Below are positions 4,559-15,706 of a stretch of 38,564 nucleotides of DNA, in pieces. Position 1 is the stretch's first letter; each line of letters begins with the position of its first letter. A program made the translations under genes and the position numbers. The DNA is from Candidatus Woesearchaeota archaeon (GTDB lineage: Archaea; Nanobdellota; Nanobdellia; Pacearchaeales; GW2011-AR1). Below the pieces are notes generated by a model. It saw only the letters and a program-made list of their open reading frames with translations. It ran no database searches and was not told the origin of the DNA. The stretch spans positions 1 to 38,564 of the forward strand of contig CAZAGO010000004.1 in assembly GCA_964485045.1 (NCBI GenBank), given 5' to 3'.

Positions 4559-5731
4559 TCATTCAAGAAAATCTATTCCAAGCTCTTCCTCTATCTCTTT
4601 ATGTTTTATTCTCTCCCTTCCTTCTCCATGTCCTAGAATTTGAGAACTCTTTACCCCTGTAACTATAAGTAAAACTCTTATTGATTTATCCATATCCTCT
4701 GCTATTTGGGCCCCCCAAATTAATTTTGCCTCAGGATTGAGTTTTTCACCAACAGCCTCTATTATAGATTTACATTCTTCCAAACTCATATTTGGTCCTC
4801 CAACAATATTAACTAAAGAACCGGTAGCATCCGCAATATCTACATCAAGCAGAGGATTTTGTATTGCCTTTTCTACAGCTTCTATTGCTCTATTTTCTGT
4901 ATCTGCCTCTCCCATTCCAATGAGAGAAACTCCTCCTCCAACCATAACTGCTCTTATATCTGCAAAATCTAAATTTACCAGTCCAGATGTTGTTACAAGT
5001 TCTGTTATACCTTTAACTGCATTTGTTAGTATTTCGTCGGCAATTTTGAACGCTGTGTGAAGAGGCAAATCTGGTGCTAATTCTAATAATTTATCATTTG
5101 GAATAACGATAAGTGTATCAACAATTGATTCCATTTTATCTAATCCATCCATCGCATTTTCTATTCTCTTTTTTCCTTCTATTGTAAATGGAAGAGTTAT
5201 TATTCCAATTGTGAGAGCTCCTTGCTTTTTTGCAAGAGAGGCTACTACTGGTGCAGCTCCTGTTCCTGTTCCTCCTCCAAGCCCACAAGTTATAAAAATC
5301 ATATCCGCCCCAGAAATTTTCTTTTTTATCTCGGATTCGGATTCCTTTGCAGCTTCCTGCCCAACTCTAGGATTACTTCCAGCACCTAATCCGTGCGTCA
5401 ATTCTTTTCCGATAAGTATCTTTTGATCAGCATTTGCATATAGTAAATCCTGGGCGTCAGTGTTTATTGCAATTAGCTCTCCTCCTTTTATTCCAATCTC
5501 CCTCATTCGACTAAGAGAATTTCCTCCCCCGCCTCCAACTCCTATAACTTTTATCTTTGCTGCTTGCTTTTTTATGAGTTCCGCAAGCTCCTTATCTATC
5601 TCTCTAACTTCTTGAGAAATATCTGAAGGGTACTTAGGAACGGTATTTTTTGTATAAGTATTTTCCATCATAAAAATAACCTCTGATTTTTTTAAACTCT
5701 CTAATAGGCGATGATGAGCAATTTCTTTCAT
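4559..5731 (-). CDS. ftsZ: cell division GTPase FtsZ
   Basis: Motifs GVGGGGGNSLSRM, NTDAQDL and the tubulin signature GLGGGTGTGAAPVVA. The true start may instead be the internal MM at 5671/5668. Confidence 0.93.
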   Translation of the reverse strand: MKEIAHHRLLESLKKSEVIFMMENTYTKNTVPKYPSDISQEVREIDKELAELIKKQAAKIKVIGVGGGGGNSLSRMREIGIKGGELIAINTDAQDLLYANADQKILIGKELTHGLGAGSNPRVGQEAAKESESEIKKKISGADMIFITCGLGGGTGTGAAPVVASLAKKQGALTIGIITLPFTIEGKKRIENAMDGLDKMESIVDTLIVIPNDKLLELAPDLPLHTAFKIADEILTNAVKGITELVTTSGLVNLDFADIRAVMVGGGVSLIGMGEADTENRAIEAVEKAIQNPLLDVDIADATGSLVNIVGGPNMSLEECKSIIEAVGEKLNPEAKLIWGAQIAEDMDKSIRVLLIVTGVKSSQILGHGEGRERIKHKEIEEELGIDFLE

Positions 5732-5852
5732 TTTCTAGTATCAAAATTGCATAAAAATGCTTTTCAGAACTTTTATTATACTCAACTCTTTGCATTAGTT
5801 AAAATAATTCCCTATGTTTATAAAAATTGTTATAGTGTAAAAAGCTACACAA

Positions 5853-6497
5853 TCATTCTTTCTTTTCTATCTCTTGAATTTCTTGAACTTCAAGATCCAT
5901 TTCAAATATATCCTTATATTTTTCCTTAAAAAGAGCTATAAAATTGACCATGTCTTTTTTAGCTTTTAAGATTATTTTCTTATCTTTAACTTCAAAATCA
6001 AAATTTTTTCTAAACAAAAATTCATTAAAAGCGCCAATCTTTTCTTTAATATCTTCTACTTTTCTCAGGACTTTTATTTTGTAATTTACATCTTTTCCAG
6101 AAAGAGGATTATTGAAGTCTACTATAACTCTTCCTCCAGAAGAGGAAATTATTTTTGCTAATCTTCCATCAAAAGAAAACATAGTCCCAGGAATAGGGTT
6201 TAATTTATGCTCTCTAAAAACCTTTCCAGGTAAGACTTGTACAAGAGCAGAATTCCTATTTCCAAAGGCCTTTTCAGGAGAAAGCTCTAGATAATATTCA
6301 CCTAAATCTTTTCCAAGAAGAAAATCCTCTACAGATTTTAAGAACATCCCTTCTCCAATGCAAAAAATAAAAGGTTTTGGCTCAGAAGATAAATTTGTTT
6401 TTTTCAAATCTTCTTTTATATTGGAATCAAAAATCTCTCCTTCTTTTGTTTTTCCAGTAAATTCTATTTCAATAAAATCTTTTTTTTGTAAAACCAT
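5853..6497 (-). CDS. FKBP-type peptidyl-prolyl cis-trans isomerase (long archaeal type)
   Basis: KKDFIEIEFTGKTKEGEIFDSN and VDFNNPLSGKDVNYKIKVL resemble archaeal FKBP/SlyD-like PPIases. Confidence 0.8.
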   Translation of the reverse strand: MVLQKKDFIEIEFTGKTKEGEIFDSNIKEDLKKTNLSSEPKPFIFCIGEGMFLKSVEDFLLGKDLGEYYLELSPEKAFGNRNSALVQVLPGKVFREHKLNPIPGTMFSFDGRLAKIISSSGGRVIVDFNNPLSGKDVNYKIKVLRKVEDIKEKIGAFNEFLFRKNFDFEVKDKKIILKAKKDMVNFIALFKEKYKDIFEMDLEVQEIQEIEKKE

Positions 6498-10347: not shown

Positions 10348-10424
10348 TATAAGTTAATTATTCCTTCCGGCGTTTTATGGAATAAAACGATGTAGGATAG
10401 AACTATAAGTTAATTATTCCTTCC
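10348..10424. repeat. 21-nt perfect direct repeat (10348-10368 and 10404-10424) flanking a 7-bp hairpin
   Basis: TATAAGTTAATTATTCCTTCC occurs twice, 56 nt apart. The second copy encodes the last 7 codons plus stop of the minus-strand gene. Hairpin CGTTTTA-TGGAA-TAAAACG lies at 10371-10389. Confidence 0.85.
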
Positions 10425-10753: not shown

Positions 10754-10904
10754 GAAAGAATAAAAAATTATTCTATTTATAAGGATTATTGTGTTTTTTA
10801 AAAGAAGTTTTAATAAACTTATTTCTAAAACAAAACGTATAAAATTCATTCAAGATTTAAAATCAATAAGTTAACTTTATAAACCCAAAATTTCTAAGAC
10901 AAAT

Positions 10905-11068
10905 ATCCGATTGAACCATATCGCGAGTGCATATATTCTATGGTACTGGCGCATAATTTGGGAGGATAGAAATAAAGTTGGTTCGTACAACTTTAATCGG
11001 AGGCAATTAAAAAAGTTGCCTTTCAACGATTTGAGGAAAATCGAAAAAAACCAGAGGGTTGTTTTCAA
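10905..11068 (+). promoter_or_regulatory. structured 5' leader of the rpl1-rpl10-rpl12 operon with a candidate L1 operator (10995-11031)
   Basis: TTTATAAA at 10876-10883 predicts a start near 10905. Hairpin at 10975-10993. AATCG-GA-GGCAA-loop-TTGCC-TTTCAA-CGATT at 10995-11031, with an alternative hairpin at 11027-11043. GAGGG lies 10 nt before the ATG. Confidence 0.4.
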
Positions 11069-11692
11069 ATGGAAAAAGAAATACTAACTGCATTAGCAGA
11101 ATTAAGAAAGAATAAAGAAAGAAAGTTTGATCAAACAGTAGATTTAATTATTAATTTGCAAAAATTTGATGCGAGAAAAAATCAAATAAACCTAGTAATA
11201 ACTACTCCTTACAAAATCAAAGATAAAAAGATATGCGCATTTTTAGATTCTAAAAGCAATTATATAGACTCAGTTACAAAAGAGGAATTTAAAAAATATT
11301 CTGGAAAAAGAGAAGTAAAAAAATTGGTAAGAAAATATGATTTTTTTATAGCTCAATCAAGCCTTATGCCTTCCGTAGCAACTACTTTTGGAAGAGCGCT
11401 TGGGCCTTCAGGAAAAATGCCTTCACCTCAGATGGGAATAATCCTTAACTCTGATGAAAAAACAATAAGAGATTCTAAGGAAAAAATAAATAATAGTTTA
11501 AAAATAAAAACAAAAGAATCTAGCATAAAACTTTCAATAGGAAAACAAAGTATGAAAGATAAGGAAATAGCAGAAAATATTCTTGCAGTTTATTCAACTG
11601 TTTTAAAAAATCTTCCAAAAGGAAAAGATAACATAAAAAATATTGAAATAAAATTTACTATGACTAAACCCCAAAAATTGAAAACAAAATGA
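11069..11692 (+). CDS. rpl1: 50S ribosomal protein uL1
   Basis: FDQTVDLIINL..., FFIAQSSLMPSVATTFGRALGPSGKMP. Followed by P0 and P1. Confidence 0.93.
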   Translation: MEKEILTALAELRKNKERKFDQTVDLIINLQKFDARKNQINLVITTPYKIKDKKICAFLDSKSNYIDSVTKEEFKKYSGKREVKKLVRKYDFFIAQSSLMPSVATTFGRALGPSGKMPSPQMGIILNSDEKTIRDSKEKINNSLKIKTKESSIKLSIGKQSMKDKEIAENILAVYSTVLKNLPKGKDNIKNIEIKFTMTKPQKLKTK

Positions 11693-14611: not shown

Positions 14612-15168
14612 TTTTTTAATCCTACGAATGTCAAAATCAATAGAACAATTACTAAAAGAGCTACCTGAACATTTTTAAAAATATTCAAAATAAGATAGAA
14701 ACTGCTTCCAGAAAACCATCCAAGAGAAACTACAATCACTATCCAAAATAAACCTACGATGAGATCACTTATAAAAAATTCTAATAATTTTGTTCTTCTA
14801 AAACCTAAATATAAAAGAGTGAGTATTCTTGTACCGAATATAAATTTTGTAGTAAAAAGAAGATTAAGCGTTCCTTTTTTATTAAGCTTTAAAATGAGAG
14901 ATTTATATTTTTTAGATAAACTGGCGAATCTTTTAAAACTAGAAATATTTTGTACAATTTTCATTCTTCCTAATGCATAAAAAAAAGTATCACAAAGAAC
15001 AATCCCTAAAAAAGAAAAAAGAAAAACTTTCCAGATTGGAATAATTCCGTTTGCGGATAAAAAAGAAAGGGTCATTATTACCTCTTCCCCAGCAAAAAAT
15101 CCTCCTAAAAAAGAAGCTAATCCTCCATAAGAAGAAATCAAAGATAAAATATATTCTACAATTCCCAT
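14566..15168 (-). CDS. DedA/VTT-domain membrane protein
   Basis: GGFFAGEEVIMTLSFLSANG...CDTFFYALGR plus 4-5 TM helices. TTTTTAAA (15190-15197) is centred 25.5 nt upstream. Confidence 0.55.
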   Translation of the reverse strand: MGIVEYILSLISSYGGLASFLGGFFAGEEVIMTLSFLSANGIIPIWKVFLFSFLGIVLCDTFFYALGRMKIVQNISSFKRFASLSKKYKSLILKLNKKGTLNLLFTTKFIFGTRILTLLYLGFRRTKLLEFFISDLIVGLFWIVIVVSLGWFSGSSFYLILNIFKNVQVALLVIVLLILTFVGLKKWISTKILKKQGISN

Positions 15169-15226
15169 CGAATAATTAGATTTTTTTAGTTTAAAAAGAT
15201 TTCAAAAAAAACTATCTTATTTAAAT

Positions 15227-15243
15227 GCCGCCGCCAGGAATCG
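15227..15243 (-). repeat. orphan copy of the tRNA-Ser 3' end (T-loop 3' part + T stem + acceptor 3' strand)
   Basis: GCCGCCGCCAGGAATCG is identical to 15499-15515. The sequence beyond it cannot form a T arm. Confidence 0.85.
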
Positions 15244-15498
15244 GCAAAAGTTATTCTAACTTTAGCTGCATTTTGAACAACACTTAAATTTTCAAAACAC
15301 AAACAAGTTCGATTCTCGCAACTTTCTTCGGAGGCAAAAATCCCAAAGGATTTTGGACTGCGACGCGGAACATTTAGTTCCAGCGCGGAGGCAATTGAAA
15401 AATAAACCTTTTGGAAAGGTTTCCAAACCAGAAATTTCCAAGAGTTGCCCTTCAAGAATAAGTGGAAAATAGAAAAAAACCTGGAGGTTGTTTTCAAC
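15244..15498. repeat. orphan paralogue of the rpl1 leader element, bounded by the 17-bp tRNA-Ser 3'-end repeats
   Basis: 15444-15497 versus 11015-11068 is about 44/54 identical. AAGTT..CAACTTT..CGGAGGCAA is shared, and the CGGAGGCAA motif occurs twice here, with extra hairpins inserted. The ORFs the track calls here and at 10877-11068 have similar 'proteins' only because the DNA is similar. Confidence 0.7.
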
Positions 15499-15625
15499 GC
15501 CGCCGCCAGGAATCGAACCTGGAAGCCCGAAAGGGCCCTGCTTTCTTGCTACTTCCTCGGGAAGGAGAAGTATGAACATTGTTCATCATCTCAAGGCAGG
15601 TGCATTACCATTGTGCCACGGCGGC
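15498..15625 (-). tRNA. tRNA-Ser (anticodon UGA) with a 47-nt intron at the canonical 37/38 position (intron 15543-15589)
   Basis: Acceptor GCCGCCG/CGGCGGC. Anticodon stem CCTGC/GCAGG, loop CTTGAG|intron|A. Long variable arm GCCC-TTTC-GGGC-TT (class II). T arm CCAGG-TTCGATT-CCTGG, discriminator G. BHB-like structure: CTTG pairs with intron CAAG, and 3-nt bulges sit at both splice sites. Confidence 0.85.
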
Positions 15626-15683
15626 TTAATTTGTGGACAAGGGTAGCTAAAGTCTGTAGGACTTTTGTGATTTGGATATTTTC

Positions 15684-15706
15684 TACCATTGTGCCACGGC
15701 GGCTTA
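15684..15706 (-). repeat. orphan copy of the tRNA-Ser 5' end (3 nt of leader + positions 1-20)
   Basis: TACCATTGTGCCACGGCGGCTTA is identical to 15606-15628. The copies are 78 nt apart, with a 55-nt spacer containing hairpin AAAGTC-CTACA-GACTTT. Confidence 0.85.

Follow-up and report, generated by a model that had tools for sequence, protein, structure and literature searches.

The stretch of DNA at positions 15227-15515 raises the question of how a likeness of a ribosomal protein gene's leader came to lie beside a tRNA gene. It is part of a contig from a Candidatus Woesearchaeota archaeon (GenBank assembly GCA_964485045.1, contig CAZAGO010000004.1, positions 1 to 38,564 of the forward strand; these 38,564 nucleotides (nt) are referred to as the window), and is bounded by 17-nt direct repeats of a tRNA-Ser 3' end enclosing 255 nt, some of which resemble the sequence preceding rpl1, the gene for ribosomal protein L1. 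The first-pass annotation of this DNA regarded the stretch as an orphan paralogue of the rpl1 leader. We find that it is probably a composite insertion at the 3' end of tRNA-Ser(UGA) and not a paralogue of an L1 operator. It would consist of three pieces: a duplication of the last 17-24 nt of the tRNA (T-loop position 56 to the end), a ~70-nt module, here named module T, that recurs with a like duplication at another tRNA, and an expanded copy, with no gene behind it, of a dispersed element that we call R1.

The 17-mer GCCGCCGCCAGGAATCG occurs at two sites in the window, 15227-15243 and 15499-15515, with no third even at two mismatches and a chance expectation of 0; the second site, as had been noted before, forms the 3' end of a tRNA-Ser gene, which is recognized by Rfam. 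The repeat stretches to 24 nt with two mismatches (15220-15243 and 15492-15515), the part at 15220-15226 being a diverged copy of the tRNA trailer (TTTAAAT versus TTTCAAC), and the duplicated target spans T-loop position 55/56 to the discriminator. ARAGORN reports the tRNA gene only when introns are allowed; its anticodon loop, CTTGAGA, and its synteny with an intron-less tRNA-Ser(UGA) in ~30 relatives identify it as tRNA-Ser(UGA) with a ~47-nt intron. (A C/D-box guide in the intron was considered and discarded: ATGATGA is there, but no D box.) Independent metagenome contigs hold the same structure, with X1 record 2 spanning 15053-15549 at 0 differences and X5 and X7 also containing it, and the repeat is thus not an assembly artefact. 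The metagenomes in which this organism occurs come from landfill, groundwater and wastewater. Relatives were collected using the neighbouring AMP phosphorylase as query, which gave 80 loci (numbered with the prefix L), nearly all from Pacearchaeota, Woesearchaeota and Nanoarchaeota bins, plus a few other archaeal bins. The closest of these is L001, with 96% protein identity, and orthologous copies of the outer repeat are present in L001, L147, L149, L150 and L151.

The larger part of the sequence between the repeats belongs to the R1 family. A search of one genome per species with the exact pattern AAAAAACCNGNNGGTTGTTTTCA matches 63 stretches, with ~53 contigs in Woesearchaeota, Pacearchaeota or Nanoarchaeota bins, several per genome and up to four contigs per genome among the matches listed; the few bacterial matches look like chance. 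The element is ~85 nt long and most copies stop 0-3 nt before the ATG of a protein gene. The downstream genes include those for L1 (rpl1), L11, S10, S3Ae, L24e, TBP, an RFC-like AAA ATPase, SMC, an Mre11-like phosphoesterase, PheRS-beta, a GatB/E-family protein and FtsZ, the identities from L11 to the GatB/E-family gene having been assigned by Pfam and that of ftsZ by Tubulin/FtsZ. R1 precedes orthologous genes in different genomes, tandem copies occur, and in L128 a copy lies 19 nt before tRNA-His. Rfam gave no match except the tRNA, down to E=10, and no description of R1 was found in the literature searched.

A covariance model of R1 was built from 47 copies and used to align 58, and covariation in both alignments supports two hairpins, P1 and P3, and a pseudoknot. 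P1 is 95% paired over the 58 copies, with both sides changed in seven of its eight pairs, one of which is GC in 29 copies and AU in 22. In the pseudoknot, CCNTT just after P1 pairs with Shine-Dalgarno (SD)-like purines in the P3 loop, and one pair is CG in 33 copies, GC in 13 and UA in 6. P3 is formed by an A-run and a T-run, with compensatory changes only in model-found copies beyond the search pattern. The observed covariation score was reached by none of 500 shuffles, and shifting the partners abolishes the signal. The minimum-free-energy fold of a single R1 copy picks a GGCAA/TTGCC helix that is without covariation in the family, and the operator fold drawn in the first-pass annotation (AATCG/CGATT plus GGCAA/TTGCC) is not the one that covariation supports.

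Within the window the model finds three R1 copies, before rpl1, beside the tRNA and before ftsZ (Table 1). The tRNA-side copy is a full-length match in which P1, P3 and the pseudoknot are all present, and its orthologues score 54-84 bits, including 83.8 bits for the short form in L001 and 73-77 bits for L147 and L149. It departs from the usual context in that the complement of the tRNA-Ser 3' end follows with no ATG, a minority context common to the orthologues. The length of the window copy reflects two nested inserts in the P1 loop, and the duplication of the loop motif at 15329-15337 and 15386-15394 that had been described earlier is present. In this loop also lies a ~30-nt mini-hairpin, AAACCTTTTGRAAAGGTTTCCAAACCAGAA (15404-15433), which is found again in the P3 region of the L151 orthologue and appears to be a third tiny insertion element.

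Table 1. Features of the tRNA-Ser(UGA) insertion and the R1 copies of the window
Feature	Position	Strand	Remarks
R1 copy before ftsZ, third and diverged	5668..5755	-	Directly before ftsZ ATG; 33 bits, E=4e-5
R1 copy before rpl1	10982..11070	+	86.6 bits (covariance model); between ancestral leader/SD and ATG
DR1, outer copy of tRNA-Ser 3' end	15220..15243	-	Core 15227-15243 = tRNA positions 56-72
Module T	15244..15315	+	Hairpin H, spacer, inverted tRNA T-loop copy
Hairpin H	15245-15267	+	CAAAAGT-N7-ACTTTAGCT; in module T
Inverted T-loop copy	15304-15315	+	CAAGTTCGATTC; complementary to 15510-15521
R1 element, long form, no gene behind	15313..15499	+	65.6 bits (covariance model), E=4e-11; expanded P1 loop
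P1 of tRNA-side R1	15319-15325 / 15441-15447	+	CAACTTT/AGAGTTG
P1 loop motif of tRNA-side R1	15329-15337	+	CGGAGGCAA; second copy 15386-15394
Nested insert 1 of tRNA-side R1	15338-15394	+	57 nt
Nested insert 2 of tRNA-side R1	~15403-15440	+	~41 nt
Pseudoknot strand	15448-15454	+	CCCTTCA; CCTTCA pairs with TGGAGG
P3 of tRNA-side R1	15473-15481 / 15486-15494	+	AAAAAAACC/GGTTGTTTT; SD-like TGGAGG 15482-15487
tRNA-Ser(UGA)	15498..15625	-	~47-nt intron ~15543-15589; Rfam tRNA 44.7 bits (15625->15498)
DR2, inner repeat copy = tRNA-Ser 3' end	15499-15515	-	tRNA positions 56-72
Second duplication, tRNA 5' end	15606..15706	-	Exact 23-nt repeat 15606-15628 and 15684-15706

The resemblance to rpl1 has a simple explanation in the structure of the rpl1 leader itself. 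In eight relatives this leader consists of a TATA box, a conserved structured stretch (CCGATTGAACCATATCG ... GGCGCATAATKTGGGAGG), 5-8 nt and the ATG. The window has the ancestral leader at ~10876-10965, with the SD sequence GGGAGG at 10960-10965, followed by ~95 additional nt and the ATG at 11069, and only the additional nt match the tRNA-side stretch. The similarity is well above random expectation: blastn aligns 15464-15497 with 11035-11068 at 88% identity (E=3e-4), and the L001 orthologue of the tRNA-side copy aligns with window positions 10974-11068 with a Smith-Waterman score of 107, versus 23.8 +/- 3.7 for shuffles. Over the last 56 nt before the tRNA the identity to the sequence preceding the rpl1 ATG is ~80%, in agreement with the ~81% given earlier for the terminal 54 nt. 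The earlier claim that all 255 nt are homologous to the rpl1 leader holds for ~95 nt only, but not for 15244-15303, 15338-15394 or ~15403-15440, which are without a leader counterpart. The two stretches are alike because a separate and younger R1 was inserted before the rpl1 ATG in this lineage, and the homology, which ends one base before the tRNA as had been remarked, stops at the position of the ATG because R1 has its own 3' boundary there.

The matching part of the rpl1 leader is therefore a lineage-specific insert and not the ancestral leader, and the paralogue framing does not survive. The R1 stretch is not in the rpl1 leaders of L004, L007, L009, L013, L014, L022, L027, L046 or L110, and among the 80 syntenic loci R1 is found beside tRNA-Ser in L001 only and before rpl1 in none. 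In the sister (L001) genome, the ancestral rpl1 leader is followed by a different insert, which is ~75 nt long and ends TGAGGAAATCTCATA-ATG. Since this genome has the tRNA-side R1 with a different rpl1 insert, the tRNA-side copy antedates the split between the window and L001, with the rpl1 insertion coming later. The nearest match of the rpl1 copy is the R1 in the RFC leader of the L001 genome (L082), at 87% identity, compared with 80% for the tRNA-side copy.

These relationships also bear on two proposals that derive the tRNA-side stretch from rpl1. The common gene order in relatives is AI-2E transporter, AMP phosphorylase, an 86-aa gene, tRNA-Ser and then a convergent rpl12-rpl10-rpl1 operon, which in several of them directly follows the tRNA; L11 does not adjoin L1 in this order, and the separation of the two genes is therefore old. 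A decayed duplicate left by an L11/L1 rearrangement, as the first-pass annotation had entertained, is not supported, given this earlier separation, the different rpl1 insert of the sister genome and the closer match of the rpl1 copy to another family member (87% versus 80%). We likewise find it hardly credible that the stretch is a segmental duplicate of the rpl1 leader serving as an L1-binding decoy, or that, as a variant considered below, the outer tRNA fragments are exons of a split or T-loop-intron tRNA. The decoy would account for the ~80% identity to the sequence before the rpl1 ATG; however, the tRNA-side stretch lacks the ancestral portion of the rpl1 leader that the clade conserves, and the sister genome's rpl1 is without R1. 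Nothing ties the tRNA-side R1 to L1, and the sequences offered no evidence that it binds L1, nor of a conserved promoter, an integrase or a T-loop intron. A false lead is thereby removed, with no second L1 operator at tRNA-Ser. A better candidate for the L1 autoregulatory site than the R1 stretch may be window positions 10906-10965, where the rpl1 leader is conserved in the clade (CCGATTGAACCATATCG - hairpin - GGCGCATAATTTGGGAGG) and 94% identical between the window and L110.

The start of rpl1 carries other inserts as well. Sequences of ~66-75 nt, different from R1 and ending TGAGGAAATC..ATG, lie between the ancestral SD or start and the working rpl1 ATG in L110 (4645-4725) and L014, and in L014 the insert follows rpl1 codon 3 and creates a 23-codon upstream open reading frame (ORF) with a stop that overlaps the real ATG. 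The different inserts in these two genomes mark the rpl1 start as a repeatedly hit insertion site.

The remaining sequence between the repeats is module T, and the direct repeat belongs with it. The motif of hairpin H occurs exactly twice in the window (0.11 expected), with the second in opposite orientation at 15645-15667, inside the 55-nt insert enclosed by a second duplication, that of the tRNA 5' end. The 23-nt repeat of that duplication contains 3 nt of leader plus tRNA positions 1-20; the duplication is spanned by metagenome contigs and is also in L147, L149 and L151, though not in L001. At a different tRNA of the L001 genome (L082), a 19-nt repeat of the 3' end, from T-loop to discriminator, surrounds 73 nt without R1 that open with hairpin H and close with an inverted T-loop copy. 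A metagenome scan added four more versions of the tRNA-Ser locus (L147, L149, L150 and L151), each with outer repeat, module T, R1 (54-77 bits) and tRNA; their outer repeats carry the T-stem variant of their own lineage, with 0-1 mismatches in 17-18 nt, and the three that reach far enough (L147, L149, L151) have the 5' duplication with its hairpin too. In L149 the outer repeat is immediately preceded by what is left of another R1 end, which fits the diverged TTTAAAT/TTTCAAC beside the repeat in the window and L001. A pattern search for module T in the species genomes found L082 only, plus three chance matches in bacterial coding sequence. A derivation of module T from a decayed tRNA was tried and abandoned, as it gives no Rfam tRNA signal. 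Separately, 39 nt of module T (window 15266-15304) match, with four differences, a 127-nt contig of 4-10x higher depth in three metagenomes, and the flanks of the match in that contig (..CACAAGTTCAGT / CTAAAGGTTCGAATC..) are unrelated.

A further reading takes the repeats as attL/attR scars of a site-specific element that integrated into the tRNA-Ser 3' end and has since been lost by deletion almost entirely. The T-loop-to-3'-end segment of tRNA genes is the classic target core of archaeal and bacterial genomic islands, the direct repeat covers that very segment, and the genes beside the outer repeat vary between lineages. However, only 155-255 nt lie between the repeats. In the 255 nt of the window there is no integrase, remnant or cargo and no credible ORF; module T and R1 account for all of it, the first known also from another tRNA and the second belonging to a dispersed family of leader elements. 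The genes that vary are located beyond the repeats, and the window has no third repeat copy. The repeat follows each genome's own tRNA variant, which argues for a target duplication and not for an att site borne by an element. We therefore judge the att scar to be very unlikely. The related suggestion in the first-pass annotation, of a small element inserted at the T-loop/3' end with duplication, comes closest to the findings, but the insert is composite and lacks an integrase and att logic.

The pairing of 5' and 3' duplications also underlies the split-tRNA variant mentioned above. In its favor, inverted hairpins adjoin the 5' and 3' fragments, and CCAGGTT (tRNA positions 49-55) is present at 15484->15478 in both the window and L001, contiguous in tRNA numbering with the outer fragment. 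The outer fragments, however, cover only positions 1-20 and 56-72, and with 21-55 lacking no tRNA could be built; L001 is in addition without the 5' part, and a split or nested tRNA was rejected. Rfam finds no tRNA-like match outside the known tRNA gene. A T-loop intron seemed at one point to covary in L001, but CCAGGTT is the SD region of class-A R1 and is missing in L147, L149 and L151, which have the T stem CCCGG.

Copies of the 5' end of tRNA-Ser(UGA) are also found in other genomes. Upstream copies of its first 10-21 nt, 45-115 nt off, occur in L003, L005, L006, L007, L013, L023, L029, L030 and L070; in these distant relatives they stand just behind the TATA box and always have the acceptor-stem variant of their own species. 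The DNA between them and the tRNA is structured and is in part homologous among L003, L005, L006 and L023, and in L007 and L013 the upstream copy resembles tRNA positions 1-26 interrupted by an insert of ~46 nt in the D loop. The outer repeat of L001 (6129-6146, CCTGG CGGCGGC) matches the tRNA of the window and not L001's own tRNA 3' end (5955-5973, CCGGG TGGCGGC), and the L001 tRNA and intron are similar to the L147 type. This mismatch suggests allele replacement or gene conversion at tRNA-Ser.

The DNA beyond the outer repeat differs between lineages: rpl12 follows directly in L151, an unannotated 836-aa ORF, possibly a surface protein, in L147, and a block of VTT-domain membrane protein, hydrolase and glycosyltransferase genes in the window and L001. 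The orientation of tRNA-Ser(UGA) relative to the AMP phosphorylase gene is inverted in L004, L008 and L025, and in many genomes 1-3 kb of variable genes separate the tRNA from rpl12. The 3' flank of tRNA-Ser(UGA) is a rearrangement hot spot.

R1 copies elsewhere have similar surroundings. Where flanks are recognizable, R1 lies in direct target duplications of 12, 13, 14, 17, 23, 32, 42 and 42 nt, found where protein genes start, and a short inverted copy of the target often stands just before it. Five orthologous loci have the arrangement GAAGCAGC ... R1 ... GCTGCTTC, while L134 has a duplicated 42-nt mini-ORF at R1 and L132 a duplicated SMC start. The alignment of R1 has no terminal inverted repeats and its flanks no target-site duplication of fixed length, the features of MITEs, a class of miniature transposable elements with inverted repeats. 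Duplications of variable length, inverted copies of the target and missing terminal inverted repeats all speak against a classical transposase. The insertions may instead have arisen by target-duplicating copying or recombination, such as template switching or staggered cuts, and the duplication at tRNA-Ser would have survived because the tRNA stayed intact. The tRNA-side copy itself would then be a passenger, with at most a role of the antisense P3 hairpin and U7 as the tRNA-Ser terminator; as judged from its sequence, a passenger and possibly a tRNA terminator is what it most likely is.

Several observations weigh against the composite insertion or against its being inert. No empty-site allele was seen among the metagenome contigs that span the locus. 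The mobility of R1 is deduced from its distribution, with no transposase or integrase known, and the count of three copies for this genome covers the window. The family pattern fixed the P3 sequence, and the support for P3 therefore comes from a few variants found by the covariance model. The composite has been kept with P1, P3 and pseudoknot intact in at least five diverged lineages, a hint of constraint or gene conversion. Among the orthologous tRNA-side copies the pseudoknot varies compensatorily (TGTT/AGCT, TTTT/AGAA and CCTTCA/TGGAGG). A similar hint of constraint or gene conversion comes from the 94.8% identity of the tRNA-side R1 between the window and L001, compared with 81.9% at four-fold degenerate sites (P~2e-6).

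The last three of these are also what would be expected if the tRNA-side R1 and module T form a retained functional unit, either because the antisense P3 hairpin with U7, 5-30 nt past the tRNA, terminates transcription or insulates the downstream genes, or because the plus strand gives an antisense or decoy RNA. Position and structure are kept in the window/L150, L001, L147, L149 and L151 despite the differing genes beyond the outer repeat, and the antisense strand is predicted to fold into a hairpin that ends in U7 no more than 30 nt from the tRNA end, a plausible archaeal terminator. We nonetheless consider such a unit unlikely. Other short spacers are equally conserved between the window and L001 (94-98%), the window copy tolerates 98 nt of nested inserts, relatives without the insert end the same tRNA with a plain T-run, and nothing is reported by a simple scan for terminators. 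The structure could also be preserved through gene conversion from other copies. The plus-strand promoter proposed in the first-pass annotation, TATTTAAA, is present at 15218-15225 but this TATA box is absent in L001; the VTT gene has its own box at ~15190-15199. The L1 decoy or sRNA antisense to tRNA-Ser raised in the first-pass annotation draws no support from this box, nor from the rpl1 leader, whose ancestral part the tRNA-side stretch lacks.

Some further features of the window and the family were noted. The likely start of ftsZ is the ATG at 5671, and the ATG of the longer ORF, at 5731, falls within R1. In L105 (691-977) R1 is antisense in a 211-nt tRNA intron at position 37/38, where ARAGORN reports Asn and the loop could read Tyr. 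A 35-nt insert between 21-nt repeats at window positions 10348-10424 is also in L110, at 91% identity, and this duplication is thus older than the split between the window and L001.

These observations define an ~85-nt, strongly covarying element that in ultra-small archaea precedes the start codons of numerous essential genes and is present neither in Rfam nor in the literature searched. They also show that target ends, namely gene starts, tRNA 5' ends and tRNA 3' ends, are duplicated again and again by small inserts in these genomes, and that such duplications mislead gene callers on start codons, as for ftsZ here, and tRNA finders. It is possible, if doubtful, that R1 represents an undescribed class of cis-acting RNA of DPANN archaea that acts as a self-spreading translation gate, inserting with target duplication before the start codons of core genes, locking the SD sequence in a pseudoknot and leaving tRNA-end copies that are kept as terminators. 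R1 would in this case turn leaderless genes into SD-led ones, with the pseudoknot opened by some global signal or factor, and the core genes hit would be those of replication, transcription, translation and division. The bounds of the tRNA-end duplications at the tRNA ends might then point to a copying mechanism that uses RNA ends. If R1 does gate translation, archaea would have in it a rare example of global control by RNA, and a regulatory part would here be spreading through a reduced genome in the manner of a mobile element.

Parallels can be drawn with four kinds of known system. The locus is like the scars left at tRNAs by integrative elements and casposons in having a T-loop-to-3'-end direct repeat with an intact tRNA on one side, but unlike them it lacks an integrase, a casposase and terminal inverted repeats, the repeats enclose no more than 73-255 nt, and there is a matching duplication of the 5' end. 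Archaeal L1 proteins autoregulate through an mRNA site of helix, asymmetric loop and helix, as in the L1-L10-L12 operon of Methanococcus vannielii and M. jannaschii. One R1 copy lies in the rpl1 5' leader and its GGAGGC motif is reminiscent of the published site; however, R1 is absent from the rpl1 leaders of relatives, is present before many unrelated genes and has a different covariation-supported fold. The window contains no 23S rRNA, whose L1-stalk binding site such an operator would mimic. Pseudoknots that sequester the SD sequence are found in the preQ1-II and SAM-II/V riboswitches and in the Escherichia coli S15 leader, and R1 shares with them a covarying pairing of upstream pyrimidines with a loop containing SD-like purines, directly before a start codon. 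It differs from them in having no evident ligand pocket or ligand regulon, in its broad range of housekeeping genes, in its mobile-like and tandem copies and in having no Rfam match. Small non-autonomous dispersed repeats that join transcripts include the Neisseria Correia elements, the enterobacterial ERIC and REP sequences, pneumococcal BOX and RUP, and the Rickettsia palindromic elements. Unlike these, R1 has neither terminal inverted repeats nor a fixed target duplication (12-42 nt plus a short inverted target copy), its 3' end lies 0-3 nt before start codons with an SD-like sequence in a covarying pseudoknot, and it is kept at orthologous housekeeping genes across species with no partner transposase known. 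Small dispersed repeats are treated, at least in part, in two reviews (PMC10969869, PMC3184786). Like the Correia, ERIC, REP, BOX, RUP and Rickettsia repeats, R1 is short (~85 nt), hairpin-rich, non-coding and present in many copies that are more alike within than between genomes, and it lies in or next to genes of a reduced genome, tRNA genes among them, with which it is apparently co-transcribed.

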